The notes: generated by a model not told the origin, from the sequence alone. DNA of 64,000 bases from Pirellulales bacterium (GCA_035496575.1 DATJEN010000238.1:2459-66458), one strand, 5' to 3'. Positions 19,787 to 63,671 are shown, counted from the first letter of the stretch. Made by a program: numbers and translations.

Positions 19787-19868
19787 GGCCGCTTGGTGAA
19801 ATTGGCAGACACGCAAGACTTAGGATCTTGTGCCGAAAGGCGTCGGGGTTCGAGTCCCCGAGCGGCCA
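19787..19868 (+). tRNA. tRNA-Leu (anticodon UAG), class II with long variable arm; CCA not encoded
   Basis: Acceptor GGCCGCT/AGCGGCC plus discriminator A. D arm GTG-AAATTGGCAGA-CAC. Anticodon arm CAAGA-CTTAGGA-TCTTG. Variable arm TGCCGAAAGGCGT. T arm CGGGG-TTCGAGT-CCCCG. Confidence 0.95.
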
Positions 19869-19967
19869 CTGTATTCTCTCGAATTCTCCCGATTCTGCCG
19901 CCTGTCACTTCAAGGCGTCAGGAGTCAGATTGCCTCTGTGCGATCTTTTCGCGCGTGCGACGTCGCG

Positions 19968-21188: not shown

Positions 21189-21200
21189 GGGAATTCTTCC

Positions 21201-21265
21201 GAATAGACGGGCGCTTTTTTGGGGGCATTTACACTCACGTCGGCGGAATCTAACGCCGTCTATTC
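21201..21265. repeat. Inverted repeat in the 5' region of the TadG-like gene
   Basis: GAATAGACGG (21201-21210) and CCGTCTATTC (21256-21265) are perfectly complementary (10 bp, with an imperfect extension to 12). On the minus strand the 3' arm is immediately followed by GGAAG and the ATG at 21188. Confidence 0.5.
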
Positions 21266-21494
21266 CACCCTAATTAGGCGGGTCGAATTGTCAAAAAATC
21301 GCGGAATTCCCGCATAATTCAACCACGATTCGTGGCACAGCGGTCATCCGATTGGTCATGGCAATTCGGCAACTTCCATTAGTTGCGCATGGAAGCGTGC
21401 AGCGACGAACCGCGGTTCCATGAAGCAGGGCTTGTGCGTCGGCGGAACTGACGCAAATGATGGCCGGCCACCGAAAATTGCAGCGCGGACAGGG

Positions 21495-21959
21495 CTAGCG
21501 GATTTTGTCGAGCGCTTCGCGGCCGGACATGCCCACTTCGATGCCCAGTTCTTTCGCCTTGGCCGTGACGGCGGTGACTTTCGAGTTGAGCATGCCGGCG
21601 GTGTCAACGGCCGGAACGATCGCGCAGGCTTCGCCGAATTTTTCGAACGATCCCACGTTCAGGTAAGGGCAACCAATCACGCCTTTCGATCCTTTGACGA
21701 CCAGCAATTTCTGATCGAGCTGAATTTCGTGCCGTTCGAGGCCGCGCCAAGCGCTGTCTTCGCCCGCCGGAATGGTATCTTGATTGGCGAGCTCGGCGGC
21801 CGCCGGTGCAGTGGCAGTCTCGCGCCGTGCGTCGCCAATGGGCCGCCCGCAGCCGGCAGAGCTGATCGCCAAAAAAACGACACAACCGCCGAGCAAGTAA
21901 AGTAGCAAGATCCAGGCCCTTTCCAAAAACTGCCCGTGGGGCGAGGTGAGCACACGCAT
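21495..21959 (-). CDS. DUF1805 (YunC-like) domain lipoprotein
   Basis: Lipobox-like FLAISSAGC after MRVLTSPHGQFLERAWILLLYLLGG. The C-terminal half LLVVKGSKGVIGCPYLNVGSFEKFGEACAIVPAVDTAGMLNSKVTAVTAKAKELGIEVGMSGREAL matches the DUF1805 pattern. Confidence 0.7.
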   Translation of the reverse strand: MRVLTSPHGQFLERAWILLLYLLGGCVVFLAISSAGCGRPIGDARRETATAPAAAELANQDTIPAGEDSAWRGLERHEIQLDQKLLVVKGSKGVIGCPYLNVGSFEKFGEACAIVPAVDTAGMLNSKVTAVTAKAKELGIEVGMSGREALDKIR

Positions 21960-22356
21960 GTCTAAAAAAGCATCTTGGCTATTTGGCTTAGGCGCCGCGT
22001 GGAACATCGTGATTGGACTGTCGATCATTTTTGCACCTGCGATTTCACTCAATCTACTCTATGGCCATGAACCGAGCGCGGACGATCCGCTTTTGTTCAT
22101 GCTGGATCGTGACTTCGGGGTTTGCGTGTTGCTGTTCGGTGTTGGGTACGCAATCGTGGCCTGGAATCCGAGCCGAAATCATGGCCTCGTATGGCTGGGC
22201 ATCGTCGGAAAATTTGTCGTGGTGGCAACGCTCGTACAACGATGGCTGATGGGCGTGGCCACGGCTTGGGTCTTGCCGACAGCAGCAGGTGATTTTGTAT
22301 TTGCGCTGCTGTTCGCCTGGTTTCTTCGGCGGAGCAAACCAAGCGATCATTCATGA
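21958..22356 (+). CDS. Hypothetical 4-TM membrane protein
   Basis: MSKKASWLFGLGAAWNIVIGLSIIFAP..., four hydrophobic segments. The ATG at 21958 shares the CATG tetranucleotide with the divergent DUF1805 start. Confidence 0.55.
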   Translation: MSKKASWLFGLGAAWNIVIGLSIIFAPAISLNLLYGHEPSADDPLLFMLDRDFGVCVLLFGVGYAIVAWNPSRNHGLVWLGIVGKFVVVATLVQRWLMGVATAWVLPTAAGDFVFALLFAWFLRRSKPSDHS

Positions 22357-22636
22357 CAAGCTAGAGTGGCTCAGTCAATTCGATCGACGTCCATTTAGCC
22401 CAACAAAATAGTTCGTGCGACAGTGAATTGGCCGTTGTGCGATCCCTTCTTGCATACTGCCACGAGAGCCAACAATTCTTGCAGCTAGGGCGGCCGATAA
22501 GTATGCTTCAACACCGGTCGAGTGCCGCTTGCCAAAGACCAACTTGGCATTGTGAACCTAGCGCGGCCACTTTGCACCTCGGCTACACGATTGTGAGTGC
22601 GCGCTCAGATCCTATGATTCGGAAATAGAGGGACGC

Positions 22637-23536
22637 ATGCACACCCTTGTCAAGTTCGCCTGCACGCTGCTTTTTAACGTGGCGCCATTGTGCGGCGCGA
22701 TCGGATGCGCCTGCTGCGTGACAAGCGCGCAGGGGGCGATCACCTATTATCGTCTGTTCAAAAGCGCTAGCTATCAACAAACGGCGAATGCCCAGCCGTC
22801 GACACCGGATCTGACATGGGCAAATCTAGATGTTTTTTCCAACAATCCGGCCGACGTAAAACTTGCAACCGTGACGGCGGCCAGTCCGCTCTCACCATTT
22901 CCTTTGAGCCTAACTGGACCCGGCTATGCGCCTCCTTATACCGCGTTCACGTTTAGCACGAGTTATGCCACGGTTAGTGCCTTGACTACGAACTATCCCA
23001 ATTCCACGTCCTATCAATTTGCTATCAGTGGCGGTGCGCTGGGGAGCCAAAGCGCCTCGCTCGTTTCGCCGGCCAGCAACCTGTTTCCAGCTATTCCGTA
23101 CTTCAGTGGCAGCACGTACAGTCAAGCGCAAGGAATGAATTCGTCGCTTCCCTTCACCTTTGCCTGGAACGGCTTTTCAGTCGCTGGCGGCGCCGTGAAT
23201 TTAGAGTTGGCATACTTCACGGTCGCCCGGATTTCTGACGGCCAGGTGGCCTACAGCACGGTCAAAGGAAATGGAGCTGGCTCGGTTACATTGCCTGCAA
23301 ATAGCCTGCAACCTAACACGTCCTACAACGCAACGCTCATTTACGATGCGCGGATCGAGCAAGCAAACGCGGGTTTCAACGGGGCTACCTCGGAAGTCGC
23401 CTTTGACCAGAGAGTTAATCTGACGTTTGCAACAGTTCCCGAGCCCCCCAGCATCGTCCTTGCCGTGTTCGGCCTCGTCGGCATGGCGTTTTGGCGGCGA
23501 CGAACTCGCACACATCTGCCGACATGGACCATCTAA
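22637..23536 (+). CDS. PEP-CTERM sorting-domain protein
   Basis: N-terminal signal-like region. The C-terminus VPEPPSIVLAVFGLVGMAFWRRR is the PEP motif plus TM segment plus Arg cluster. Confidence 0.8.
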   Translation: MHTLVKFACTLLFNVAPLCGAIGCACCVTSAQGAITYYRLFKSASYQQTANAQPSTPDLTWANLDVFSNNPADVKLATVTAASPLSPFPLSLTGPGYAPPYTAFTFSTSYATVSALTTNYPNSTSYQFAISGGALGSQSASLVSPASNLFPAIPYFSGSTYSQAQGMNSSLPFTFAWNGFSVAGGAVNLELAYFTVARISDGQVAYSTVKGNGAGSVTLPANSLQPNTSYNATLIYDARIEQANAGFNGATSEVAFDQRVNLTFATVPEPPSIVLAVFGLVGMAFWRRRTRTHLPTWTI

Positions 23537-23588
23537 GGAACTTTCCCTCCATTTGCGGCGCAGCAACAGGCTGGGTTCACGGGCGTAT

Positions 23589-24104
23589 TTACTTCTTGAG
23601 CTTCGAGGCGAAGCGAAGGCCGACGCCGTCGGGCGCGACAACGGTGAAATCGCGCAGACCATAGTATCGATCGCCGATGGCCCGTTTAACGGGCAACTTC
23701 ATTTCCTGGCACAACTTCCAATAGCGATCGACGTCGCTGACCATGATGCGGATGTTGGCCACCATGGTGGCGGGCGGATTCGGCTGGCCGGGAAGCTGTT
23801 CGAGATACAGCCGCGAGTCGTCCCAGCCAAGCTCCACGAAGGTTGGCTCCCTGCGCACCACGGCGAACCCCAATTGCTCGTAGAACGCGGTTGAGCGCTT
23901 CACGTCGCGCACATAAACCTCGACGATCAACTGTTCCGGCGCTTCGACGTATTTCGGGCGGGGTGACTTGTCACCCTGGGCTTGAACTGGCTCGTCCGCC
24001 GTCGCGAACCGAATACCGGCTGTGAAAGCGAATCCAATGCTCAGGCCGCACACGAACGCCCGCCACAAGCCGCGATGCAGATGTCGATGATTGAGCATCA
24101 GCAA
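23589..24104 (-). CDS. VOC (glyoxalase/bleomycin-resistance/dioxygenase) family protein with N-terminal signal/anchor
   Basis: VVEVYVRDVKRSTAFYEQLGFAVV...FVELG...LYLEQ...IRIMVSDVDRYW...GDRYYGLRDFTVVAPDGVGLRF. Confidence 0.7.
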   Translation of the reverse strand: MLMLNHRHLHRGLWRAFVCGLSIGFAFTAGIRFATADEPVQAQGDKSPRPKYVEAPEQLIVEVYVRDVKRSTAFYEQLGFAVVRREPTFVELGWDDSRLYLEQLPGQPNPPATMVANIRIMVSDVDRYWKLCQEMKLPVKRAIGDRYYGLRDFTVVAPDGVGLRFASKLKK

Positions 24105-51192: not shown

Positions 51193-51227
51193 CCGAGGCG
51201 GTCAGGCGTGGCCGCCTCGGTTTTTTT
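51193..51227 (+). terminator. Rho-independent terminator
   Basis: CCGAGGCGG (51193-51201) pairs with CCGCCTCGG (51212-51220); 10-nt loop; T7 (51221-51227). Confidence 0.8.
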
Positions 51228-51366
51228 GCACGCGTCCCCGCAAAGTCCCTCATCCACTGGATGCGCACAGGTCGCGGCGACAATTCTCTGGGGCGAGTTG
51301 CAATCCGGCTGGCGCGCTTGCACACTGAAGCACCCTGCAAAGAGCCGCCTCTGGGAGCCAAATGCC

Positions 51367-52773
51367 ATGTCGCGCCCCTTAGCCTTTTTCTGCACCTGGT
51401 CCCTGTCGCTCCTCGGCATGTCGGGCGTCGCCTTGGGCGCCGACAATGCATTGACCGCCGGCGTCGCCACCGTCGACATCACGCCCGAACCCGGCCAGAT
51501 GCTGTGGGGCTATAGCAATCGAACGCACGGTGCGACCGGCACGCTCGATCCTTTGATGGCCAAAGCGGTCGTGCTGCGCGCCGGCAGCGAGCACGTGGCG
51601 ATCGTGACGCTCGATCTTGGCCGCACGCCCGAGGAATCGGTGCTCGCCAAGGTGCGTGAGAAGACCAAGGCCGAGTGCGGAATTTCGAACTTGTTCATCA
51701 CGGCCAGCCACACACACCACGCGCCTGCACTTGAGTCGACCGTCGATAAGCCAAACCCCTACGGCGAGAAAGTGGGCGAGCAAATCGCCGAAATCATCTG
51801 CCGCGCGGCCCGCGAAGCGGCCCCGGCACGCATCGGCGTGGGTCGTGGACAGGCCGATTTTGGCCACAACCGTCGCAAGCTTCTGAAGGACGGTCGCGTG
51901 GCCATGCAGTGGCGGAATGCCGAGCATGAGCCCACCGAGCCGGTCGATCGGGAATACGCCACCATTCGCATCGATCGGGCTGACGGCACGCCACTGGCCG
52001 TGCTCTTCAACTATGCCTGCCATCCTGTGGTTCTTGGACCCGACAACTACCAGTACAGCGCCGACTATGTCGGAGCGGCCTGCGAGATCGTCGAGCGCGA
52101 ATTGGGCGCCAAGTGCCTGTTCCTGCAAGGCGGCTGCGGAAACATCAACCCTTACATGGACAAAACGCCGCTCGACCAGGGCGGGATCGCCGAGATGCGC
52201 AAGATGGGACACGCCCTCGGCGAGCTGCTCACGAAAACGGCGCGGCAGACCGCGACCACCGCGCCGGCCAAGAACTCCATCCAGTACGAAGCCCGCGTGG
52301 TTCCCGTGCGCACGCGTTGGGACTTGAACCAGCCCGAAGTCCGCGCGGTGCTCAGCAAAGCCTATGGACCGCGCTTCGATAACTACATTTCAAAAGTGGT
52401 CAAGAACAACCAGGTGCCCTGCACGCTCACCACCGTGTTGATCGGCGGGAACCTGGCCTTGGTCGGCATGCCGGGCGAGATCTTCGTGCAGTTTCAAACG
52501 GCTCTCAAAACGCGCTCGCCCATTCGCGACACGTTCCTGGTCGGTTACACCCAGGGCTATCACGCCTACTTTCCGACGCTGCAGGACGCCGCGGCCGGAG
52601 GTTACGGCGGCAAGACAGCCACCTATGTTGAGCCGGGAGCCGGCGAGCGTCTGACGGACGAGGCGCTCATCACGCTCTACAAGATGAGCGACAAACTGCA
52701 TGACGTACCGCGGGCCGACGATTTCAAGCTCCTGGAATACGACGAGGTGCGTCGCACCCAGGCGGCCAAATAA
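51367..52773 (+). CDS. Neutral/alkaline ceramidase-like N-terminal domain protein, secreted
   Basis: Signal MSRPLAFFCTWSLSLLGMSGVALG. VDITPEPGQMLWGYSNR...GTLDPLMAKAVVL...ITASHTHHAP...FNYACHPV. Confidence 0.65.
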   Translation: MSRPLAFFCTWSLSLLGMSGVALGADNALTAGVATVDITPEPGQMLWGYSNRTHGATGTLDPLMAKAVVLRAGSEHVAIVTLDLGRTPEESVLAKVREKTKAECGISNLFITASHTHHAPALESTVDKPNPYGEKVGEQIAEIICRAAREAAPARIGVGRGQADFGHNRRKLLKDGRVAMQWRNAEHEPTEPVDREYATIRIDRADGTPLAVLFNYACHPVVLGPDNYQYSADYVGAACEIVERELGAKCLFLQGGCGNINPYMDKTPLDQGGIAEMRKMGHALGELLTKTARQTATTAPAKNSIQYEARVVPVRTRWDLNQPEVRAVLSKAYGPRFDNYISKVVKNNQVPCTLTTVLIGGNLALVGMPGEIFVQFQTALKTRSPIRDTFLVGYTQGYHAYFPTLQDAAAGGYGGKTATYVEPGAGERLTDEALITLYKMSDKLHDVPRADDFKLLEYDEVRRTQAAK

Positions 52774-52834
52774 CCAAGCGCGCGGCTTCGGATCGCACTT
52801 CTGTCGAAAGCTGCGCTTTGAAGGGATTTCACAA

Positions 52835-53926
52835 ATGGCCATGGAACCGTCGGCAACTCCCGCGATGGTCGTCGATGCGCGGACGGTGCTGCGCAACGTG
52901 GCCCGGCTGGCGGAATATGCCGAAACGCACGAGCTCGACGTCCGCCCGCACACGAAGACGCACAAATCGCGGCAAATCGCCGACCTGCAAATGGCCGCGG
53001 GCGCCATCGGACTCACCGCCGCCAAGGTCGGCGAAGCCCAATTGATGTCGGAGGTGGCAGACGACATTCTGTTGGCCTATCCGGCGATCGACCCGGCTCG
53101 CACCGCGCGGCTCGTGCAATTGGCGGCCCATGCCACTTTGCGCGTCGCGGTCGATTCGATCGACGGCGCACGGCTGGTCGGCGAAGCGGCCAACCGGCAC
53201 AGCGCCACGGTAGGCATCCTGGTCGACCTCGACGTTGGCCTGCATCGCACGGGGGTCCAATCGCCCGGCGCCACGCTTAAAATCGCCCAGTATGTCGACT
53301 CGACAGCCGGACTGCGGCTCGACGGGCTGTTCTGCTACCCCGGCCACATCAATGCTCCGCCCGGCGATCAAGAGCCGGCTCTGACAGCGGTGGCCGACCA
53401 GCTCGCCGAAACGCTTCGGCTGTGGTACGACCATGGGCTGCAAGCGCGGATTGTGTCCGGCGGCTCCACGCCGACCGCGTTTCAGTCGCACCTGGTGACC
53501 GATTACACCGAGATTCGGCCCGGCACCTATGTGTACAACGATATGAACACCGTTCGCGGAGGATTCTGCAAGCTGGAAGACTGCGCTGCCCGCATTATCG
53601 CCACGGTCGTGAGCACTGCCGTGCCGGGGCAGGTCGTCATAGATGCCGGCAGCAAAACGCTGACCAGTGACCTTTGCGGCCCGGCCCCGCAAAGCGGCCA
53701 CGGTCACGTCGTCGAGTATCCCGATGCGCGCATCGCCAAGCTGAGCGAGGAGCATGCGCAGATCGACATCCGCGACTGCCAGCGCGCCCCGCAGTTGGGC
53801 GAGCGGCTGACCATCATTCCCAACCACATCTGCCCCTGCGTCAATCTGCAGGACAGCGTCTGGTGGCGGGACGAAGATGGCGCACTGCAGGAGCTGGCAA
53901 TCGATGCCCGCGGCATGTTGATCTAG
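52835..53926 (+). CDS. D-TA family PLP enzyme (alanine-racemase-fold N-domain + D-serine dehydratase-like C-domain; D-threonine aldolase/D-Ser dehydratase type)
   Basis: PAMVVDARTVLRNVARL...VRPHTKTHKSRQIA (PLP Lys context)...GLTAAKVGEA...YPGH...SGGSTPT...IRPGTYVYND...HICPCVNL. Confidence 0.75.
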   Translation: MAMEPSATPAMVVDARTVLRNVARLAEYAETHELDVRPHTKTHKSRQIADLQMAAGAIGLTAAKVGEAQLMSEVADDILLAYPAIDPARTARLVQLAAHATLRVAVDSIDGARLVGEAANRHSATVGILVDLDVGLHRTGVQSPGATLKIAQYVDSTAGLRLDGLFCYPGHINAPPGDQEPALTAVADQLAETLRLWYDHGLQARIVSGGSTPTAFQSHLVTDYTEIRPGTYVYNDMNTVRGGFCKLEDCAARIIATVVSTAVPGQVVIDAGSKTLTSDLCGPAPQSGHGHVVEYPDARIAKLSEEHAQIDIRDCQRAPQLGERLTIIPNHICPCVNLQDSVWWRDEDGALQELAIDARGMLI

Positions 53927-53973: not shown

Positions 53974-55377
53974 TCAGTCAGGCATGTCCTCGAGCCCCGG
54001 CTCAGGCAGCCAGAAGCTAGCGATGGTCCCCACCAGATAGACGAACAGGGCCACGCCGGCCGCGGTGTACGCCATGTTCCAGGCGGGTGGAGTTCCCTCA
54101 TCGAACGCGCGGACGGCAATCGTATTGGTGACCCAGGCGAAGGAGGTCCCGATCATGCGGCCGCCGATATTCGCGGCAAAGCCTTCGCCCGTGCCGCGCA
54201 GGTGAACCGGATAGACGCGTGGCAGGTAATTGCCCCAAAAACTGAACTGGGCGACCGTAAACAGCCCGGCTAGAAACGCCCCCGCTGTAAAGACGGTCAG
54301 GCTGTGCATGGGGGCGAACGCGAACACCATCGGCACTACGAACAGCCCCGGCACCTGAAAGACCCGCAGCAGCTTGCGGCGGCTAACGATCTGGACCGCC
54401 AGCACGGCCAACAGCAGCCGGCCCACCAGCCCGCCGATTTCCTGCCCCGTGCTGACCCGGGCCGCATTTTCCTGCTCGATTCTTTTCTGCGCGGGGACGG
54501 GCTTGCCTTCGGTCTGGGCTTTTACCTCGGGGACGCCCGGCACGATCTGCGGGATCTGCTGAATGGCGCCAAACGCCGCTCCATAGCTGCAGGCGAACAT
54601 GATGGTGGTCACGATCGTGGTCTGCCGCAGCCCCGGCGCAAAGAGCTCGAAGATGCTTGGCCGCCGCAACGTGCCCGCGGCCCGCTTGGCCGCCCAGGCC
54701 GGCGACTCTGGCAAGAACGGCCGGATCACGATCAGGGGCAGCGCCGGCACGATGCCAGACATGAGCGTGTATCGCCACGGTGCATTGCCATCGCTGATCG
54801 TGCCCAAGAACGAGGCCCACTCGGGCAGAGCAATGGTGGGGAAGGACTCGGCGTTGGTCGTGACGAGCCAATTCACAAGTGCAACCAACAATCCGCCAAA
54901 CGAGGAAAAGGCCTGCGTGTACCCCAGCACTTGTTCGCGTTGCTTGGGATCGGTGAACAATTCGGCCAGCCAGGCGACCGCCGCCACGAACTCCACACAC
55001 ACGCCCACGAAGGTGGTCGAGCGCAGCACGAGCAACATTTCGATGGAGGTCGAAAAACCGGCCCCAAAGGCTGATAGGGCATAGAGCAGGATGCTCCAAG
55101 TCAGCACGCGCCGCCGGCCCAGGCGATCGGTCAGATAGCCGCCTAACAGGCCGAAAATGCCGCCGGCGAACGCTGGCACGTAAAACAAGCGGCCGGCCCA
55201 CATCGCGAATTCAGGCGTGCCGCGCTTGAAGCCGGTCAGGTCCGTGATGGCCGGCGGGATGATGAACTGCGCCATCAGCAGCTCATAAATATCAAAAGCG
55301 AACCCAATGGCCGCCATGGTGACGATCAGCCATTGGGTCGCGGTCAGGCGAGGACGCGGGGCGGACGCGGAGCTCAT
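53974..55377 (-). CDS. MFS transporter
   Basis: 12 hydrophobic segments. MFS motif A-like GGYLTDRLGRRRV. Divergent from the KamA operon. Confidence 0.85.
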   Translation of the reverse strand: MSSASAPRPRLTATQWLIVTMAAIGFAFDIYELLMAQFIIPPAITDLTGFKRGTPEFAMWAGRLFYVPAFAGGIFGLLGGYLTDRLGRRRVLTWSILLYALSAFGAGFSTSIEMLLVLRSTTFVGVCVEFVAAVAWLAELFTDPKQREQVLGYTQAFSSFGGLLVALVNWLVTTNAESFPTIALPEWASFLGTISDGNAPWRYTLMSGIVPALPLIVIRPFLPESPAWAAKRAAGTLRRPSIFELFAPGLRQTTIVTTIMFACSYGAAFGAIQQIPQIVPGVPEVKAQTEGKPVPAQKRIEQENAARVSTGQEIGGLVGRLLLAVLAVQIVSRRKLLRVFQVPGLFVVPMVFAFAPMHSLTVFTAGAFLAGLFTVAQFSFWGNYLPRVYPVHLRGTGEGFAANIGGRMIGTSFAWVTNTIAVRAFDEGTPPAWNMAYTAAGVALFVYLVGTIASFWLPEPGLEDMPD

Positions 55378-55668
55378 GCAGAAATACCTGTGATAGCGGA
55401 AACAAAGCGGAAACGGCCTTGAGCCCTGCCGCCCGAGCGGCTAAAAGCTCGCCTCGCGCCCTAAGGGCTCGGCACCGATGATAGTAGAGCCCCGTCGCGC
55501 CTGGCAAGCGCGCACCCAGCGGCGAGCCTAGCGCGGGACCGCCACGGAGGGACCTGTTCGAGCGCGCAAAAACTTTGCAAACAAACCGCTGAGCGCCTTG
55601 TCCCTAGAGAGGACTCACAAATAATTTCAGCGCGCGCGGAATTTGCTTGCATTGCGCACGGAACATGC

Positions 55669-55697
55669 TTGTCGCTTTTTACCAATGTTGGTATAAG
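55669..55697 (+). promoter_or_regulatory. Sigma70-like promoter candidate for the KamA operon
   Basis: TTGTCG (55669-55674), 17-nt spacer, TATAAG (55692-55697), about 80 nt upstream of the ATG at 55779. Confidence 0.4.
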
Positions 55698-55778
55698 CAC
55701 GCGAGCTTGGAGTCTCAGGCTGGCTGAGCCGGCCCTCGAGCTCGATGGATCTTCAAGTTGTGGAGGGATTCGCAGCAC

Positions 55779-57203
55779 ATGAACCGTTTCGAAGCCGCGT
55801 CCATTGCGGTGCCCGAAAGCTCACTCTTACCGGACGAGAACGAAGAGCCTCCGGGTAATCCGCGGCGGCATCCCAAATGGAACGACGTCCCCGACGAACA
55901 GTGGGACGACTGGCGATGGCAAATGCAAAATGCCATTCGCAGCACCTCTCAACTGGCCGAATTTTTCTGTTACGGCCCCCAGGAATTTGCCGCCCTGGAA
56001 AGTCTCGAGCAGAAGTACAAGCTGGCGATTCCGCCCTACTACTTCTCGCTGATCAATACCGACGACCCCTCTGACCCCATCGGCCTCCAGGCCCTGCCCA
56101 GCGCCCTTGAGCAGTCGAGCACGGCCGGCGTCGAGCTTGACGATCCGTTGGAAGAGGACAAGGACTCGCCCGTTCCCGGCCTGACGCACCGTTATCCGGA
56201 CCGCGCGCTACTGGTCACCACCCATGTGTGCACCATGTATTGCCGGTTCTGCACCCGCAAGCGGGTCACGATGGACCGCGACGGCTGGGACGCTCCCAAC
56301 CACAACGATCAGCGGATGGTGCAATATGTGCGCGAGCACCACGAGATCCGCGACGTGATCGTTTCCGGCGGCGACCCCCTATCGCTGCCCATGGGCCGCT
56401 TGCGCTGGTTCGTGAATGAGCTGGCCGACATCGATCATCTGGACGTGATCCGCCTCGGCACCCGAGTGCCGGTCACGTTGCCGCAGCGGCTGTTCGATCA
56501 AGAACTGGTCGACATGTTGAAGCAGGCGGGCAAAATCTGGATCCAAACGCATTTCAATCACCCGCGCGAGATCACTCCCGCTTCGGCCCAGGCGTGCCGA
56601 AACCTGGTGAACGCGGGCATGCCGGTCAGCAACCATGCCGTGCTGCTCAAGGGCGTGAATGACTCGGTGATTACCATGCGGCAGCTCGTGCGCGGGCTGT
56701 TGCGGATCAAGGTCCGCCCATACTACTTGTTCCATTGCGATCCGGTGACCGGGGCAGGCCATTTCCGCACCTCGCTGTGGAAAGGCATGGAGATCATCGA
56801 AGGCTTGCGTGGCCACGTGTCCGGGCTGGCAGTGCCAACCTATGTCGTCGACGGGCTGCACGGCGCCGGCAAAATCCCGGTCATGCCCAACTACGTGGTC
56901 TCCGCGGCTGACAACGCCGTCATCCTGCGGAACTACGAAGGGCTGCTTTTCCGCTACCAACCGGAAGATCGCCCGGAGAGCGAGGGTCACGGCTATCAGA
57001 CGCTCGGCGTGAGCTCGCTGCTGAGCGGAACGCGCGAGGTGCTGGTGCCCGACGGCACGCCGCGCATGGCGCGTCGCCAAGACCATGGCAGCGATTCGGC
57101 CGATGGACAGCCCGCCGACGTGATTCAGATCACGGGCTATCAAATGCCCGATTCGCTGGAAGCGGCGCGCACTCCTTGGGCCCGCTTGCCGAAGGCCAAA
57201 TAA
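55779..57203 (+). CDS. kamA: KamA-family radical SAM aminomutase (lysine 2,3-aminomutase-like), with a C-terminal extension of about 60 aa
   Basis: GGAGGGA (55763-55769) precedes the ATG at 55779. WDDWRWQMQNAIRS, CTMYCRFCTRK (CxxxCxxC), VIVSGGDPLSL, RPYYLFHCDPVTGAGHFRTS, IIEGLRGHVSG, VVDGLHGAGKIPVMPNY. Confidence 0.85.
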   Translation: MNRFEAASIAVPESSLLPDENEEPPGNPRRHPKWNDVPDEQWDDWRWQMQNAIRSTSQLAEFFCYGPQEFAALESLEQKYKLAIPPYYFSLINTDDPSDPIGLQALPSALEQSSTAGVELDDPLEEDKDSPVPGLTHRYPDRALLVTTHVCTMYCRFCTRKRVTMDRDGWDAPNHNDQRMVQYVREHHEIRDVIVSGGDPLSLPMGRLRWFVNELADIDHLDVIRLGTRVPVTLPQRLFDQELVDMLKQAGKIWIQTHFNHPREITPASAQACRNLVNAGMPVSNHAVLLKGVNDSVITMRQLVRGLLRIKVRPYYLFHCDPVTGAGHFRTSLWKGMEIIEGLRGHVSGLAVPTYVVDGLHGAGKIPVMPNYVVSAADNAVILRNYEGLLFRYQPEDRPESEGHGYQTLGVSSLLSGTREVLVPDGTPRMARRQDHGSDSADGQPADVIQITGYQMPDSLEAARTPWARLPKAK

Positions 57204-57235
57204 GCAACCAGTTCCCTGTATCAGGAACTTCCACG

Positions 57236-58300
57236 TTGAGAATCGGTTTGACCTTTAACGTCCGGTCGGCCCGCGAACCTGGCCGCCCGGACGATTTCGT
57301 TGAGCGGTTGGCGGGCAGCGGCCCGTTTCGCGCGCGCGACGACATCGACGAAGAGTTCGACTCGCCCGAGACGATCGAGGCCATCGCCGAAGCGATCGCG
57401 AGCCTGGGCCACGAAGTCGAGCTGCTGGGCTACGGCGAAGCCCTGTTGCGGCGGCTGCTCGACGGACCGCGGCCGGACCTGGTGTGGAACTTTGCCGAAG
57501 GACATGGCAGCGCGCGCAGCCGTGAGGCCCGCGTGCCGGCCGTGCTCGAGATGCTCGACGTTCCGTACACGGGTTCAGACCCGCTGACCTTGGCCGTGAC
57601 CCTCGACAAAGATTGTGCCAAGCGATTGGTCGGGGCGGCGGGTGTGGCCACGCCGCGCTGGGCCGTGTACGAGGGTGACTGGCCGCCCGTGCGCGCGCTG
57701 GTGGCGTCCTTGCCGCGGCCGGTGTTCGTAAAGCCCTGCTACGAAGGTTCGAGCAAGGGCATTCTCGGCAGCAGCTTGATTGAGGACCTTGCCACGCTGG
57801 AACACTCGCTGGCCGAGCTGCACGAAGCTTATCAGCAGCCGATCCTGGTCGAGGAATTCATCGACGGAGATGAATTGACGGTTGGCGTGATTGGCAATCG
57901 CTCGCCGGAGGTGCTGGGCATCATGCGGGTTCTGCCGCGCGACAAGTCACAGGCCCCATTCGTCTACAGCCTGGACATGAAGCGGGACTGGCAGCGCCGT
58001 GTGCGCTACGAGTGTCCAGCGAAGCTCAAACCCGCTGATACCGAGGCGGTGCGTGCCGCGGCTTTGGCCTGCTGGCGAGCCCTGGGGTGCCGCGATATCA
58101 CGAGGATCGATTTCCGCCTGCGCGACGGTGTACCCTATTTTCTCGAAACCAACCCGCTGCCGGGGCTATCGCCCCTTTCCGGCGATCTGGTTATCCTGTC
58201 ACGCCAGGTGGGCATCGAATACCGCGATCTGATCGCGCGCATCCTGCAAGCAACCTGTGAGCGCCTGTCGTTGACGCCAGATGCTCCGGTCGTGGCATAG
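57236..58300 (+). CDS. ATP-grasp ligase, D-Ala-D-Ala-ligase-like (first copy)
   Basis: In-frame TTG at 57236 (start uncertain). RIGLTFNV...EFDSPETIEAIAEAIASLGHEV, KDCAKRLVGAAGVATPRW, VFVKPCYEGSSKGI, ILVEEFIDGDELTVGVIG, RIDFRLRDGVPYFLETNPLPG. Confidence 0.8.
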   Translation: MRIGLTFNVRSAREPGRPDDFVERLAGSGPFRARDDIDEEFDSPETIEAIAEAIASLGHEVELLGYGEALLRRLLDGPRPDLVWNFAEGHGSARSREARVPAVLEMLDVPYTGSDPLTLAVTLDKDCAKRLVGAAGVATPRWAVYEGDWPPVRALVASLPRPVFVKPCYEGSSKGILGSSLIEDLATLEHSLAELHEAYQQPILVEEFIDGDELTVGVIGNRSPEVLGIMRVLPRDKSQAPFVYSLDMKRDWQRRVRYECPAKLKPADTEAVRAAALACWRALGCRDITRIDFRLRDGVPYFLETNPLPGLSPLSGDLVILSRQVGIEYRDLIARILQATCERLSLTPDAPVVA

Positions 58301-58337
58301 CCCTGCTGCCGCCAGCGCGCTCGAGGGCCAGCGAACC

Positions 58338-59363
58338 GTGCAAGTTCTCGTCCTCTATAACGAGCCGGCGTTGGCCGCGGCTGACGCCGATGCGGCCGCC
58401 GAAGCCGGCGTGCTGGAATCGGTGGAAGCCGTCTCGGCGGCGCTTGCGCGGCGGAGACATCAACCGCGATCGCTCGGTTTGAGCGAGAGCCAAGAACGAC
58501 TGGCGAGTCTGCTGGCCGAGTTGCCGCGCTACGACGCCGTATTCAATCTGTTCGAAGGATTTGGCGGCGTGGGTCGCGGTGAAGCCGAAATCAGCGGCCT
58601 GGTCGAACGCTCGACCGGTGCCATGACCGGTTCACCCGCGGATTGCCTGGCGCTCGTACGGCACAAGGCGCGCACCAAGTGGATGCTTGCCGGCGCTGGC
58701 GTCCCTACGCCTGAGTTTGTGCTCGTCGAACCAACGCAGCCTATCGACCTTGCCGGGCTGGAAGCGCTGCTGAGTTCCGGCGCCGTGATCGTCAAACCGG
58801 CCCACGAGGACGCCAGCCAGGGAATTCACTCCGGCAGCGTGGTGACCGAGCGGGAAGCCTTGCTCGACCAGGTTGAAACCGTTCGTTCGCGGTACGGTGA
58901 GGTGCTCGTCGAGCGGTTTGTCATTGGCCGCGAATTCAACGTCGCCCTCCTCGAACTCGACCGCCCCCAGGTGCTGCCCGTCGCGGAGATCGAATTCAGA
59001 GGCGCGGGCCGCGCCGGCTGGCAAATCGTAACCTATGATGCAAAATGGGCGGTTGGCAGCTGCGCGGATCTGGAAACCCCGGTTCGCTGCCCGGCGCAAT
59101 TGGACGAACGGGCCGCGAGCACGATCCGCCAACTGGCACTCGCGACGTTTCGCATCACCGGCTGCCGCGACTACGCCCGGGTCGACATGCGGATGGACGC
59201 CAGCGGCCGGGTGTTCGTGCTGGAGGTGAATGGCAATCCCGATATCGGTCCATCGGCCGGCTATGCCCGCGCCCTTGCGGCCGCCGGTTGCGAGTATGAT
59301 GAGTTCATTGAACGCCTGACGTGCAGGGCCCAGCAACGTGGTCGATCCCGCCAATTCCAGTGA
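58338..59363 (+). CDS. ATP-grasp ligase, D-Ala-D-Ala-ligase-like (second copy)
   Basis: GTG at 58338 after GAGGG; the alternative ATG at 58281 overlaps the previous gene by 20 nt. VLVLYNEP, HKARTKWMLAGAGVPTPEF, VIVKPAHEDASQGI, VLVERFVIGREFNVALL, RVDMRMDASGRVFVLEVNGNPD. Confidence 0.8.
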   Translation: MQVLVLYNEPALAAADADAAAEAGVLESVEAVSAALARRRHQPRSLGLSESQERLASLLAELPRYDAVFNLFEGFGGVGRGEAEISGLVERSTGAMTGSPADCLALVRHKARTKWMLAGAGVPTPEFVLVEPTQPIDLAGLEALLSSGAVIVKPAHEDASQGIHSGSVVTEREALLDQVETVRSRYGEVLVERFVIGREFNVALLELDRPQVLPVAEIEFRGAGRAGWQIVTYDAKWAVGSCADLETPVRCPAQLDERAASTIRQLALATFRITGCRDYARVDMRMDASGRVFVLEVNGNPDIGPSAGYARALAAAGCEYDEFIERLTCRAQQRGRSRQFQ

Positions 59364-60288
59364 GCAGAATGAATCGGCCGATCCGCCCAGCGGACCCAAG
59401 CGCCGCGTGCACCCGTGGGTTCGCCGCTGGGTTTATGCGATCTTCTGGTTGCTGATCGCGTGGGCGCTGGCCGCCTACCTGCTCTTGCCGGCGCTGTGGC
59501 GTCACTACGAGCATCATCCCTCGCTTGAAAGCGCGCCCAAGACCACGGAAACGAAAAACGGCATACCGGGTGATCCGCTGAATGTGGGGCTGGTGGGCAC
59601 GAAAGAGGAAATCGTGAGGGCGTTTGCCGCCGCGCATTGGTATCCGGCCGACCCCGTCACGCTGGCCAGCTCACTCAAGATTGCCGAAGGGGTGGTGTTG
59701 GATCGCGCCTATCCGACCGCACCGGTGAGCCCGCTGATGCTATGGGGCCGCCACCAAGACCTGGCATTTGAAAAGCCGGCGGGCGTGAGCCCTCGTCACC
59801 GTCAGCACGTGCGGCTGTGGCAAAGCGAAGATCACGGCGACGATGGGCAACCGCTGTGGATTGGCGCAGCCACCTACGACGACAGCGTGGGCTTGAGCCA
59901 TTACACGGCGCAAATTACGCACCATATCGCCGCGGACGTGGATGCCGAGCGCGATGGCATGATGAGCGATCTTGCCGAGGCTGGGCAGCTCGTGCGGCGT
60001 TATCAGGTGACTGGTGTCGGACTGACCGTTAACGGGCACAATGGCGGCGGCGACCGCTACTACACCGATGGCGAGCTCGATATCGGCGTGATCGCAGTCG
60101 GTAACGTGCGACAGAGCGAACCCCCCGTCGAGCTTGCGAATCCGCCGGCGGTGGTCGTCAAAAATCGCATTTGGAACTGGTTCCGGCCGCTGCTCAAGAA
60201 AACCGATGACACGGCTGGCGATGCGGCGGATATCGCCACTAAAGAGTCCCCGGCCGACGCTCCACGCGGCGACGAGCAAAGCAAGTAG
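59338..60288 (+). CDS. LssY C-terminal domain-containing membrane protein
   Basis: GTG at 59338 overlaps the preceding stop (59361-59363). One TM segment (IFWLLIAWALAAYLLLPALW), then DPLNVGLVGTKEEIVRAF..WYPADP, YPTAPVSPLMLWGRHQDLAFEKP, RHRQHVRLWQS, PLWIGAATYD, ITHHIAADVDAERD, as remembered for LssY_C (PF14067). Confidence 0.7.
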   Translation: MVDPANSSEQNESADPPSGPKRRVHPWVRRWVYAIFWLLIAWALAAYLLLPALWRHYEHHPSLESAPKTTETKNGIPGDPLNVGLVGTKEEIVRAFAAAHWYPADPVTLASSLKIAEGVVLDRAYPTAPVSPLMLWGRHQDLAFEKPAGVSPRHRQHVRLWQSEDHGDDGQPLWIGAATYDDSVGLSHYTAQITHHIAADVDAERDGMMSDLAEAGQLVRRYQVTGVGLTVNGHNGGGDRYYTDGELDIGVIAVGNVRQSEPPVELANPPAVVVKNRIWNWFRPLLKKTDDTAGDAADIATKESPADAPRGDEQSK

Positions 60289-60292
60289 CGGC

Positions 60293-61636
60293 TCAACCAT
60301 CCACGCGACGATAGAGACCAAAGTTCTGGTCCGCCAGTGTCCGCAAGAACACGTCGAGTGGGCCACCCGGTATGCCGGCGCCGATCCCGATTGTGTAGAT
60401 GCTGACCCGGCGAGTCTTATTGGCCGCGGTAATGGCCGCCACGATATCGACCGGGGCGGCAATCTTGCCGCCGTGCGGTGCGCCATCCGACAGGAAGTAA
60501 ATCGCCTCGGTGTCGAAGCCGAGTGCCGCTTCGAGCGCGTCATAGGACGCGGTGTTCGAGTGCGGGCTTTGCGCTTCGACATAATGCATCGCGGCAGCCT
60601 TGGTCTTGTCGTTCGCCTTGACCAGGTCCTTGTGCCAGGTCGCGACCGTGCCATTGAACACCACCACGCCGAACTCAACGTGGTCGGGCAGGCCCTGGAT
60701 GGCCTTCGTTAGCTCGCGCTTGGCCGCTACGATTCGCGGCCCGGTCATGCTGCCCGATGTATCGAGCACGAACACCAACTTTTGTGCAAACAGCGGCAGG
60801 CCATAGTAGTAGCCGCTTTGGCTCTCGAGCGCCACGCTGCGATAGGGCGACTCGACCGATCGGGTCGGGTACTGGAACGTGTCCTTCGACTCTTGCCACC
60901 AGCGACCCCAGGCTTGGGCGTCCATCCCGAAGATTTGGCCCGTGGTTTGGGCGAGATGCTCGACGGCGTCGGCCTTGGCCTCGCCGCCAACCCGGTCCAT
61001 GAGTTCGATCAGCGCGCCAATCGCTTCGCGATCAGCGATGCGCGAGAGTGCGGCAACGGTTGCGCGCCGCAGACCAAAACTATCGGCAAAGGCGCGCGTG
61101 CTGGCGAGCTGCACGAGCGGCGCGACATCTGCCGCGGCGCGGTGAGCGCCCAACTCATCAGCCATGGAGACGAGCACGGGCAATCCATGTCGATTGGGTG
61201 CGACGACCTCATCGACAAAGCCGACCGCATCGCGGCGAACGGCCGGCCAGCTCGTTGAAAGCACCGCGGCCAACGAGAGCGCGGCCGCCGATTGGGAGTC
61301 CTCGCGGCCAATATCCTTCTTGAGCAACAGCAGCAGGGTCTCGCAGACCTCTTGCTTATCGCTCATTTTCACCAGCGACTCGTAAGCGGCCTTCCGCACG
61401 CTCAAATCCGCGTCGTACAGGCTGTTGTGGATCAGCCGTACCGAGTCGGCAATGGGAAAGGCTTGGAGCCGCGCAACGGCGGTGGCTCGATTGCCCGCAT
61501 CCTTGCTGCGAAGCTGGGGCTGCAGACTGCGCCGCGCCTTGGCAAACTCTTCTAAGTGGTCGCCCGCGCGGGCCGCCGCGCTAGCGAGCGCGGCAAGGCA
61601 CAACGCAAAGAGCGTGCATCTCGGAAAAAACAGCAC
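60293..61636 (-). CDS. Secreted HEAT-repeat + von Willebrand factor A domain protein
   Basis: Signal MLFFPRCTLFALCLAALASAAARA. HEAT-like DAGNRATAVARL / DLSVRKAAYESL. MIDAS VFVLDTSGSMTG, VVFNG, IYFLSDGAP, VSIYTIGIG. Confidence 0.8.
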   Translation of the reverse strand: MLFFPRCTLFALCLAALASAAARAGDHLEEFAKARRSLQPQLRSKDAGNRATAVARLQAFPIADSVRLIHNSLYDADLSVRKAAYESLVKMSDKQEVCETLLLLLKKDIGREDSQSAAALSLAAVLSTSWPAVRRDAVGFVDEVVAPNRHGLPVLVSMADELGAHRAAADVAPLVQLASTRAFADSFGLRRATVAALSRIADREAIGALIELMDRVGGEAKADAVEHLAQTTGQIFGMDAQAWGRWWQESKDTFQYPTRSVESPYRSVALESQSGYYYGLPLFAQKLVFVLDTSGSMTGPRIVAAKRELTKAIQGLPDHVEFGVVVFNGTVATWHKDLVKANDKTKAAAMHYVEAQSPHSNTASYDALEAALGFDTEAIYFLSDGAPHGGKIAAPVDIVAAITAANKTRRVSIYTIGIGAGIPGGPLDVFLRTLADQNFGLYRRVDG

Positions 61637-61706
61637 GGCCGTCTGACCCTGGTTCCAACCTGCGAAGTGCCCGCGCGTCTATTTTCTCGTGCGACCCGTT
61701 CGGCTG

Positions 61707-63671
61707 TCAATGAACGTGCGCGCGCATCTGCCGCCACAACTGTTCGAGCTGACCCCGGCCAGCCTCAGGCACTCGGCCCCGCGCATACGCGGCTTGCGCG
61801 TAGAGCTCGGCCAGCGAGCGGGCTTCGTTTTTGATGAATCCGTTGCCCCTCGAGACTTCGTTCACCAGCTCATGCGGCGTGCGGTCTCGCTGGCGCGGAC
61901 AGCCGCGCTCGGCCGACCAGGCTTCAAAAGCCTCGAAGCTATAGCGAACCAACTCTTCGGTCGAAACCTGCGCCGCCAGGCCGCTGACAAACGGGTCGGC
62001 ATAGCTCGAAAACCCAGGCGGCGGCAGCTCGGGCATTTCGCTCGCGGCAAATGCCCGCTTGGGCCGCTTGTTACCGAGCAGCGCGTCCCAAATGCCGCGC
62101 AAGGCCGCCAGGAACTCGCGGCAGGCGGCCGCAAGTTCCGCCCGATAGCGCCAGCATGCAATGGCGGTCACCGTTATCAGCCCGGCATAAAAAACCCAGC
62201 GAAAGATTTTGCTCAACCAATCAGAGAGCCCGCCGGCCACCTCCGGCAACTGAGGCTGCGCCGGCGAGCTCGGCGCGCTAGCCGTGTTCTTGGCGTCTTG
62301 TTCGTCGGGCGGATTCTCGTCGTCCCGTGTGCCCTCATCGCTCGATTCGCTGTCGCCTTCCGGCTTGGGGGATTGCTTAGCCAATCGCTCGGCTTCGTCT
62401 CGACGAGCTTTGTTGTCCTCATCCAGGCGAGCTTTCAACTCATTCATGTTGCGCGGCCGCTCGTTGCTGGCCGGCTGCGGGGCATTTTGCTTGGATGCGG
62501 AGGCCTGTTTCGTTTGCGAAGGGTTATCAGGTTCGACGGGCGCGTCAGGATTCGAGGACTGACCGCCGCCCTCGTTCGCCTTGGAGTTGGACTTGCTGCC
62601 CTGCCCGGCTGCTTTGCTGGCGGATTTTTCCGCTTGATCGCTGGTGGCACCGCTTGCCTGCTGGGATTCTTGATCGGATAGTTCCGCCGGCGCGGCAGCG
62701 GCATTTTCGTCGTCGCGCGTGCCTTCGTTGGAGCTGGGCGCGATGTGAGCCGCGCGCTGCTCGGGCGACCCGACGGAAAATGGCAGGCGCGCCAGCTCAT
62801 ATTCGGCGCTTGGCCGTGGCAGGATCGAAGCCGCGACCAGCAGCGCCAAGATCAGCGCCGTGCCCGTGGACAACCACAAGCTGGTCATGGCCGCCGGCAT
62901 TTCGATGCGCCGCTGCCGCAGATAACGTCTCAACCCCAGGAAGCTGGTCGTGAGCAAGAGCCCCATTCCGCTGGCCACGTAGGTTGCCAACAGCCAGAAG
63001 GCGGCGATCCTGCCGGCCGAGTTCGACTCGGGAATGAACCATTGCCCTAGCCCAAACAGCGGCAAGGCGGCCAGGGAGAAATACACGACCCACACGCCCG
63101 GCGCATGTGGCCGCCGCTGATTCTCAACGTATCGCTGCCAATATCCTTTGGGGACCTGGCGCGAAGTGGTGCCCTCGATGGGCCGCACCGCGGCGGTCGT
63201 GGCTTTCGGCTGCGCATCCGTCGCTTCGCTCGTGGTCTCTAGTCCCGCGGCCTGCAGCAATCCTTCGCCGGAGGCATCCTGCGCGTCGTCGATAACGGTG
63301 CAATCCCACGTCAATCGATGGGCGCACCACCACACGAGCGCGATCAACCCAATGTTGATGATCCAGCCGAAATGGTCGACCCAATCGCCGCGGTAATCGA
63401 GAAAACGCATGGTGGCCAATCCCACCACCAGGGCCAGCGCCGCCCCGAATGGCGCCGCGCGCTCAAACCCTTCCTCGATCGAAATGCGCGAAATCAACAC
63501 GGCCGCGAATACAAAACACGCCATCACCCAGTGCAGCCGCGCTTGATACTCCCCCTCATAAAACACACCGATCAAAAAGAACACCAGGCTGCCCACGAGC
63601 GCCATGATCAGCGCCGGACTGATCGCGATCACGACATAGTCGGCCAGAGTCTGATGAAGCCGTCGTGCCAT
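61707..63671 (-). CDS. Multi-pass membrane protein with long disordered acidic/Ser-rich linker and C-terminal DUF4129 domain
   Basis: About 8 hydrophobic segments. Low-complexity region encoded around 62280-62760. The C-terminus FEAWSAERGCPRQRDRTPHELV...ARSLAELYAQAAYARG is DUF4129-like. Sits between DUF58 and vWA genes. Confidence 0.7.
   Translation of the reverse strand: MARRLHQTLADYVVIAISPALIMALVGSLVFFLIGVFYEGEYQARLHWVMACFVFAAVLISRISIEEGFERAAPFGAALALVVGLATMRFLDYRGDWVDHFGWIINIGLIALVWWCAHRLTWDCTVIDDAQDASGEGLLQAAGLETTSEATDAQPKATTAAVRPIEGTTSRQVPKGYWQRYVENQRRPHAPGVWVVYFSLAALPLFGLGQWFIPESNSAGRIAAFWLLATYVASGMGLLLTTSFLGLRRYLRQRRIEMPAAMTSLWLSTGTALILALLVAASILPRPSAEYELARLPFSVGSPEQRAAHIAPSSNEGTRDDENAAAAPAELSDQESQQASGATSDQAEKSASKAAGQGSKSNSKANEGGGQSSNPDAPVEPDNPSQTKQASASKQNAPQPASNERPRNMNELKARLDEDNKARRDEAERLAKQSPKPEGDSESSDEGTRDDENPPDEQDAKNTASAPSSPAQPQLPEVAGGLSDWLSKIFRWVFYAGLITVTAIACWRYRAELAAACREFLAALRGIWDALLGNKRPKRAFAASEMPELPPPGFSSYADPFVSGLAAQVSTEELVRYSFEAFEAWSAERGCPRQRDRTPHELVNEVSRGNGFIKNEARSLAELYAQAAYARGRVPEAGRGQLEQLWRQMRAHVH

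Follow-up and report, generated by a model that had tools for sequence, protein, structure and literature searches.

What a lysine 2,3-aminomutase does beside two ligases of the D-alanine--D-alanine ligase (Ddl) family is the question raised by a stretch of 64,000 nucleotides (nt) from a Pirellulales bacterium (GCA_035496575.1 DATJEN010000238.1:2459-66458; hereafter the window, with positions counted from its first letter). In this window the genes for a KamA-type aminomutase (KamA) and two paralogous ATP-grasp ligases (Lig1 and Lig2) follow one another on one strand, succeeded by a gene for an LssY_C membrane protein and facing a divergent gene for an MFS transporter (Table 1). A first-pass annotation made from the sequence alone had joined all of these genes in one system for a beta-lysine product, with the membrane proteins serving its localisation or export. 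Judged by comparison with related loci, the functional unit is KamA, Lig1 and Lig2, not four genes plus the MFS gene, and with a probability of roughly 0.55 it makes a small beta-lysine-containing di- or tripeptide without a nonribosomal peptide synthetase (NRPS).

Related loci were surveyed in one genome per GTDB species by means of Lig1-specific peptide patterns, which gave at least 575 loci, and the best 80 were kept. Adjacency was counted only in loci with enough flanking sequence, and KamA was scored as adjacent when it lay within 700 nt upstream of Lig1. KamA was found directly upstream of Lig1 in 58 of 70 informative loci and Lig2 downstream of Lig1 in 58 of 71, with median intergenic gaps in the module of 66 and 31 nt. 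The order KamA-Lig1-Lig2 on one strand recurred in Pirellulales, Gemmatales, Isosphaerales and Chloroflexota/Dehalococcoidia (Lig1 identity in the last, 47-52%), and carriers in culture include Gemmata palustris and Gemmata massiliana (Lig1 accessions WP_246523216.1 and WP_162669997.1). De novo clustering of all flanking open reading frames (ORFs) in the 80-locus survey gave no further neighbour with broad conservation, and no conserved carrier or precursor ORF was seen on inspection of the gaps inside the module. The neighbourhood outlined in the first-pass annotation was conserved for KamA, Lig1 and Lig2, and was confined to close Pirellulales relatives for LssY_C and the MFS gene. Nothing that this annotation had named as refuting its proposal was observed.

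Large gaps between Lig1 and Lig2, or elsewhere in the module, hold inserts of selfish or unrelated genes in a few loci. Between Lig1 and Lig2 (L004 11102-13177, L047 1776-2520, L049 11404-11805, L050 11068-11811 and L085 10054-10788) the inserts comprise a 691-amino-acid (aa) peptidase-like protein, a DUF433/PIN-like toxin-antitoxin pair, an HNH endonuclease and DUF4058, and this junction seems to tolerate insertions. Between KamA and Lig1, a 79-aa ORF with two predicted transmembrane helices was present in Gemmata-type loci only (L085 8694-8933; L049, L051, L058 and L073); it was considered as a small carrier or precursor and was set aside as a two-helix membrane protein limited to five loci.

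A recurrent fourth partner, which the four-gene composition of the first-pass annotation had omitted, is a GNAT acetyltransferase of about 160 aa. It followed Lig2 in 14 of 15 Chloroflexota loci (the contig of the fifteenth ends right after Lig2), was fused to Lig1 in L025 and to Lig2 in L037 and L050, and in L019 and L029 was found downstream at a distance of about 4 kb; its distribution covered Chloroflexota, some Gemmatales and further contigs. An assignment of these linked GNATs as AblB, the acetyltransferase of the AblA/AblB pathway, was not supported, as they gave no AblB-type match at E <= 0.01 and their best matches were weak ones of RimI type.

Gene fusions were sought exhaustively among 1.8 billion representative proteins, of which 830 matched at E <= 1e-30, many of them 560-790 aa in length. 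Two kinds were recognized among the proteins scanned with Pfam, namely KamA+Lig1 fusions (Radical_SAM + LAM_C + Dala_Dala_lig_C; P0428, P0469 and P0486) and tandem double ATP-grasp proteins. The order was [KamA-Lig1 fusion]-Lig2-GNAT in L086, and sigma-54 activator, KamA, [Lig1-Lig2 fusion] and GNAT in L088/L089. Conserved gene order and these fusions together are strong evidence for a single pathway in which the aminomutase works with both ligases and, in loci that have one, with the GNAT, and they bear out the earlier proposal that the aminomutase and the two ATP-grasp ligases form a conserved functional module.

Double Lig1-like proteins that are not accompanied by KamA make up a sister group. 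In L090/L091 (7001-10432), a 724-aa tandem double ATP-grasp protein, both halves of which are Lig1-like, is followed by a Peptidase_S58 gene with no KamA nearby. Peptidase_S58 is the DmpA/BapA family. Members of the DmpA/BapA family are beta-aminopeptidases (PMC9235088), and the pair may be a sister system that makes and recycles another beta-amino-acid peptide.

For the substrate of the aminomutase, KamA (Pfam Radical_SAM and LAM_C) was aligned over 400 residues with the clostridial lysine 2,3-aminomutase 2A5H (E 1e-121), in which the epsilon-ammonium group of lysine is bound by Asp293 and Asp330. As the first-pass annotation had proposed, these two residues align to the D of FHCD and the D of YVVDG. 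The equivalents of R134 (the alpha-carboxylate Arg), D293, D330 and K337 (the Lys that binds pyridoxal phosphate, PLP) were invariant in all 55 KamA sequences linked to the gene trio, Chloroflexota included, and so were the three Cys of CTMYCRFC, which is the CxxxCxxC cluster motif. Against curated models, KamA exceeded the cutoff of the KamA-family subfamily TIGR00238 (320 bits; cutoff, 199.2) and fell below those of the specific equivalogs, with its best score for AblA (TIGR03820, 455.6 bits; cutoff, 525.4), followed by glutamate 2,3-aminomutase (415.7; cutoff, 650), arginine 2,3-aminomutase (366.2; cutoff, 600) and EpmB (236.9; cutoff, 369.3). From the complete conservation of its catalytic and lysine-binding residues, KamA is predicted to be a lysine-type enzyme that converts L-lysine to beta-lysine.

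Its scores below the cutoffs for AblA and for the glutamate and arginine enzymes would also suit an aminomutase acting on arginine, ornithine or glutamate, with a product built on a different beta-amino acid. Such a substrate is distinctly unlikely, for both Asp residues that hold the epsilon-ammonium group are invariant and the best-scoring specific model is the lysine enzyme. Glutamate 2,3-aminomutases reportedly carry Lys and Asn in place of both Asp, as Ruzicka and Frey are said to have described in 2007.

The identity of KamA as EpmB, the beta-lysine-forming partner of EpmA in the modification of elongation factor P (EF-P), was rejected on the failed EpmB cutoff, the presence of LAM_C and the constant absence of efp from the vicinity, and the earlier opinion that the aminomutase is lysine-type and not EpmB-like holds on the conserved residues and on that cutoff. 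With a tblastn probe applied to the loci only, efp was found neither in the window nor in any of 85 loci, and no EpmA-type neighbour resembling an aminoacyl-tRNA synthetase was found among the recurrent flanking clusters. A Gemmatales cluster downstream of Lig2 (cluster 18), which was checked as EF-P because it is about 180 aa long, proved to be DUF3109.

The same observations bear on the idea that the ligases attach beta-lysine to a macromolecule, either a protein side chain or terminus (EF-P-like or RimK-like) or a cell-envelope precursor. EpmAB, and with it beta-lysylation of EF-P, has been reported in a review for Planctomycetota and Chloroflexota (PMC12856214), the same phyla as those of the module; the nearest curated family of the linked GNAT, by a weak match, is RimI, a protein N-terminal acetyltransferase; and membrane proteins stand in the operon in some lineages. 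Attachment of this kind is nevertheless judged improbable, because neither efp nor an EpmA-like gene nor a conserved small acceptor ORF occurs near the module in 85+ loci, KamA is closer to AblA than to EpmB by the scores given above (455.6 against 237 bits, the latter with a cutoff of 369), and the Ddl-like pockets of Lig1 are sized for free amino acids.

Both ligases carry Pfam Dala_Dala_lig_C (E 5e-32 and 1.5e-29), and in public databases they are named 'D-alanine--D-alanine ligase', 'ATP-grasp domain-containing protein' or 'hypothetical protein'. The best Ddl model gave 164.6 bits for Lig1 and 125.7 bits for Lig2 (cutoff, 243), and all other Ddl/Van models were further below their cutoffs. 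For comparison of residues, 81 Lig1 and 57 Lig2 sequences were aligned to Escherichia coli DdlB, the sequence of which was verified as identical to that of 2DLN. DdlB residues K97, K144, E180, E187, K215, R255, D257, E270 and N272 were invariant in both ligases (E270 is replaced by D in two Lig2), and H63 is replaced by E in both. Lig1 retains E15, S150 and S281, with Y216 changed to W/Y/F and L282 to G/S, whereas Lig2 shows the changes E15 to S/A, S150 to A, Y216 to W, G276 to D and S281 to A. By these residue patterns both ligases look catalytically competent, and neither looks specified for D-Ala. The AlphaFold2 model of Lig1 (predicted local distance difference test, pLDDT, 82) had only Ddl among its top Foldseek matches (E about 1e-23, TM-score 0.65-0.84), and no solved structure closer to Lig1 than true Ddl was found with this model.

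That the two proteins are ordinary peptidoglycan D-Ala-D-Ala ligases, whose adjacency to KamA is meaningless, would agree with their public names, their fold and their best PDB matches, which are Ddl. It is highly improbable in view of scores of 164.6 and 125.7 bits under a cutoff of 243, the changed specificity residues, an adjacency kept across two phyla, and the physical fusions with KamA and GNAT. The first-pass annotation was right in separating them from true Ddl, as every Ddl cutoff is failed and the D-Ala specificity positions differ.

From the conservation, the fusions and the residue patterns described above, we infer the substrates, the order of reactions, the product and its physiological role as follows. 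Beta-lysine supplied by KamA would be joined by the ligases, each of them making a single amide bond by way of an acyl phosphate. Lig1 would form the first amide bond involving beta-lysine and probably acts on beta-lysine directly, because KamA and Lig1 are the tightest pair; its pockets would accept a free ammonium (E15 and S150) and a free carboxylate (S281), with an extra acidic residue contributed by H63E. Lig2 has lost the residues that bind the donor alpha-ammonium and has gained Asp 276 in the second site, which would fit an N-blocked, peptidyl or beta-amino-acid donor, or an amine acceptor with no carboxylate nearby. It would probably extend the product of Lig1, or take a donor with a shifted or blocked amine. 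H63E, G276D and an acidic N-terminal motif (DDxDEEFDSPET) are candidate contacts for the amino groups. Where present, the GNAT probably caps the free amine of the product by N-acetylation, and in the Pirellulales version found in the window the product would be left unacetylated unless a GNAT is encoded elsewhere in the genome. The product would probably be retained in the cytoplasm, either as a nitrogen-rich metabolite or as one that resembles a compatible solute.

Instead of a defined peptide, the ligases might polymerise beta-lysine, alone or alternating with another residue, into a poly-beta-lysine or cyanophycin-like polycation that serves as a nitrogen store or antimicrobial. Cyanophycin synthetase has two ligase domains, and two cooperating ligase activities that are sometimes fused recall it; double Lig1-like proteins exist, once beside a gene of the S58 beta-aminopeptidase family, and lineage-specific membrane proteins and transporters adjoin the operon. 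A polymer is unlikely, as the KamA-linked module has no exporter, primer-related gene or depolymerase conserved beside it, the GNAT cap in many lineages fits a defined small molecule better, and Ddl-type enzymes usually form one bond per substrate pair. A broader version, in which a beta-lysine oligomer or polymer is made or beta-lysine is grafted onto a protein or envelope acceptor, with the membrane proteins (LssY_C, the 79-aa protein, MFS and APC) handling placement, is considered rather unlikely; if true, it would mean that Planctomycetes and Chloroflexi commonly have a new polycationic biopolymer made by ATP-grasp enzymes, or a novel type of beta-lysylation.

Several points weigh against the small-peptide reading. 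The module-linked GNAT fails to match the AblB model, and no GNAT homologue was found in the 64-kb window. The position of KamA below the AblA cutoff leaves room for a related basic substrate, and the roles given to Lig1 and Lig2 depend on residue analogies with DdlB. In approximately 18% of informative loci, Lig2 or KamA is missing from the adjacent position. Samples of soil, groundwater and freshwater are the source of many carriers, and in such habitats there is no obvious need for a classical salt osmolyte. Finally, membrane proteins that vary by lineage occur in or near the operon (LssY_C, the 79-aa two-helix ORF, MFS and the APC permease), and they could mean that the product is exported or destined for the envelope rather than being a cytoplasmic solute.

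The inclusion of LssY_C as a component was not supported by its distribution. The domain itself is clear (PF14067, E 1.4e-66, 224.1 bits against a gathering score of 25), and it adjoins Lig2 in two to three of the 80 survey loci, depending on the tblastn threshold (L004 and L006), and additionally in L084 and the window, all of them close Pirellulales relatives. Homologues with 57-58% identity stand in unrelated contexts in L082 and L083 (Tundrisphaera and another genome of 7.6 Mb). Besides an N-terminal transmembrane helix, the protein has a domain that was modelled with confidence (pLDDT 80), and no relative was found in the PDB by sequence or by fold. Its homologues are unusually conserved across Planctomycetes (55-70% identity), with H56, E58, H59, R155, H157, R159, H188, H195, H196, D202, D239, D244 and E246 invariant, and so many invariant His, Asp, Glu and Arg residues suggest a metal-dependent active site.

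The MFS gene, too, drops out as a component, being limited to close Pirellulales relatives that have in common a long syntenic block (ceramidase-like, Ala_racemase_N/D-Ser-dehydratase-like, MFS, the trio, VWA, DUF4129, DUF58 and MoxR). In about ten Gemmatales loci, a non-homologous APC amino-acid permease occupies the equivalent divergent position next to KamA, which keeps a transporter link open without establishing one; genes for a glutamate dehydrogenase and for this divergent permease were noted upstream of KamA in L029 (4988-7912) and about ten to fourteen further Gemmatales loci. No export or carrier gene conserved with the module was found among the flanking ORFs of the surveyed loci.

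The arrangement of the locus was confirmed in detail. All ORFs of the four tightly spaced same-strand genes and of the divergent MFS gene were recovered at the positions first assigned, the domains named for the five proteins were reproduced by Pfam profile search, and the motifs CTMYCRFCTRK, SGGDPL, FHCD, YVVDG, YFLETNP and VFVLEVNGNP were all present in the translations. KamA and Lig1 are separated by 32 nt and Lig1 and Lig2 by 37 nt, and Lig2 and LssY_C overlap by 26 nt or are separated by 43 nt. No terminator-like site above chance was found inside the operon. The Lig1 of the window is HTM55312.1 (100% identity).

Table 1. Positions of the genes and regulatory elements at the aminomutase-ligase locus of the window.
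Feature	Position	Strand	Remarks
KamA-type lysine 2,3-aminomutase (radical S-adenosylmethionine + PLP)	55779-57203	+	474 aa; first enzyme of the module
Lig1, Ddl-like ATP-grasp ligase	57236-58300	+	354 aa; tightest linkage to KamA
Lig2, second paralogous Ddl-like ATP-grasp ligase	58338-59363	+	341 aa; 31% identical to Lig1
LssY_C membrane protein	59338-60288	+	co-oriented lineage-specific neighbour, outside the core
MFS transporter, divergent	53974-55377	-	Pfam MFS_1 / Sugar_tr; lineage-specific neighbour with its own conserved putative promoter
Operon promoter	55667-55702	+	GCTTGTCG, 17 nt, then TGGTATAAGCACGC (extended -10)
5' leader stem-loop directly after the -10	55701-55748	+	moderate support
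Putative MFS-gene promoter, TTGCCA-18-TATCAT	55478-55507	-	conserved in the intergenic alignment

The start codons were assigned as follows. KamA starts at ATG 55779, preceded by a GGAGGG Shine-Dalgarno sequence (55762-55767), both of which are conserved in the Pirellulales intergenic alignment, and TTG 55758 is not the start. The KamA stop (57201-57203) and the TTG start of Lig1 at 57236 stand as first assigned, the latter because homologues begin with MRIGLTFNVR. For Lig2, where GTG 58338 and ATG 58281 had both been offered after the Lig1 stop, that stop was confirmed (58298-58300) and GTG 58338 is the likelier of the two starts, because the alignment with homologues begins near residue 20 of the long ORF and this GTG is preceded, at 10 nt, by GAGGG. 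The overlap of GTG 59338 of LssY_C with the Lig2 stop (59361-59363) was also confirmed, and an in-frame GTG at about 59407 is an alternative start.

For the promoter, the MFS-KamA intergenic regions of the window and of eight Pirellulales relatives were aligned (mean identity, 49%). The TTGTCG-17-TATAAG element proposed earlier was located at 55669-55697, and no other part of the intergenic region is conserved as well. GCTTG (55667-55671) and TGGTATAAGCACGC (55689-55702) were invariant in 9 of 9 regions and were the only long invariant blocks; together they are an extended -10 promoter, which is real as far as the comparative data show. It was missed by a generic promoter scan because the -10 ends in G. 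The minus-strand TTGCCA-18-TATCAT (55507-55478) was likewise kept in all nine regions and probably serves the divergent MFS gene as its promoter.

The hairpin at 55701-55748 (dG -24.6 kcal/mol, z -2.3) could be a 5' stabiliser of the mRNA or a regulatory element. A two-tier stem-loop with differing inner-stem sequences directly follows the -10 in 7 of 9 related leaders; RNAalifold supported it weakly, by 4 pairs only, because the alignment is poor. No riboswitch or known RNA was found in the 400-nt leader, nor any match to an Rfam family. In two unclassified lineages, the module or the double ligase is immediately preceded by a gene for a sigma-54 enhancer-binding protein (L087 884-2353 and L088 3892-5349), with a hybrid histidine kinase further upstream in L088. 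A sigma-54 promoter was for this reason sought by a simple pattern; none was present in the leader of the window or in the leaders of L086-L090, and matches across the whole window were at chance level.

The remaining observations concern the surroundings. The flanks of the locus (51208-53926 and 60293-63671) encode neutral-ceramidase-like, Ala_racemase_N/D-Ser-dehydratase-like, HEAT+VWA and DUF4129 proteins, and the best NCBIfam model for the Ala_racemase_N/D-Ser-dehydratase-like protein is the 3-hydroxy-D-aspartate aldolase BhcC, far below its cutoff. At 19787-24000, a tRNA-Leu gene (anticodon TAG) is followed by a stretch of lower GC content (0.56-0.57 against about 0.62) with genes for a Tad-pilus-like protein, a PEP-CTERM protein and a bestrophin; it looks ordinary, and no integrase was seen in it. 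A role in defence was discarded, as the four operon proteins had no PADLOC match.

Few fates of beta-lysine are known, namely N-acetylation, modification of EF-P, incorporation by NRPS and fermentation. In the searchable full text, outside of which most subscription journals lie, no description was found of an aminomutase working with ATP-grasp ligases or of beta-lysine in Planctomycetes or Chloroflexi, and the earlier view that the combination is undescribed agrees with the literature searchable in this way. Present in at least 575 species genomes, the module would add an ATP-grasp route for beta-lysine and, for two phyla that have been little studied, probably a metabolite that is both new and widespread. 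It would also correct an annotation error, as proteins of Planctomycetes and Chloroflexi entered by the hundreds under the name 'D-alanine--D-alanine ligase' would not be cell-wall enzymes, and this reannotation bears on arguments about peptidoglycan in both groups. For enzymology, there would be two new specificities derived from Ddl, one or both of them probably directed at a beta-amino acid.

Among known systems, Ddl/Van enzymes have the fold, the ATP, Mg and catalytic residues and the Pfam domain in common with the module ligases; they differ in that the latter score below the cutoffs, carry E for H63 in both and have the E15-S150-Y216 triad and S281 replaced in Lig2, and in that the context of the module ligases is an aminomutase whereas that of Ddl is cell-wall genes. 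Stand-alone ATP-grasps related to Ddl build di- and tripeptides stepwise from free amino acids in BacD/YwfE, RizA/RizB, the two phaseolotoxin ligases and MysC/MysD. To our knowledge, none of these pathways includes beta-lysine or an aminomutase, and they belong to narrow secondary-metabolite clusters, unlike a module so widely distributed.

The ligase domain of Ngg is likewise an ATP-grasp. Ngg carries out both the acetylation and the peptide-bond formation that yield NAGG, an N-acetylated dipeptide osmolyte, without an NRPS (PMC8070244). In the synthesis of NAGGN by Ngg/AsnO, GNAT and peptide-bond activities cooperate, even in one polypeptide, and ligase-GNAT fusions are found in the module as well; the module differs, as likened by description, in having no AsnO-type amidotransferase, a beta-amino acid from a radical-SAM mutase as building block, and two ligases where Ngg/AsnO has one. 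In the reaction of carnosine synthase, ADP and Pi are released as a beta-amino acid is ligated (PMC9235088), and this enzyme is a further case: as the maker of beta-alanyl-histidine it is an ATP-grasp that activates a beta-amino acid, as is proposed for the module; by the same kind of comparison it is unlike the module in being eukaryotic, a single enzyme and specific for beta-alanine. EpmA/EpmB, in the same phyla (PMC12856214), resemble the module in making beta-lysine by a KamA-family enzyme before joining it by an amide bond, but EpmA is a paralogue of aminoacyl-tRNA synthetases and not an ATP-grasp, and the KamA of the module fails the EpmB cutoff, has LAM_C and is never next to efp.

AblA/AblB make N-epsilon-acetyl-beta-lysine (PMC12776343), and in methanogens, as with YodO/YodP in Bacillus, KamA-type synthesis of beta-lysine is likewise followed by modification of a nitrogen; a GNAT stands by the module, or is fused in it, in many lineages. 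Unlike AblA/AblB, the module has two ATP-grasp ligases between the aminomutase and the GNAT, its GNAT does not match AblB, and its KamA lies below the AblA cutoff. All parts belong to known enzyme families, and their chemistry would recombine a known logic, by analogy joining the two osmolyte routes of AblA/AblB and Ngg, with a product that is probably new.

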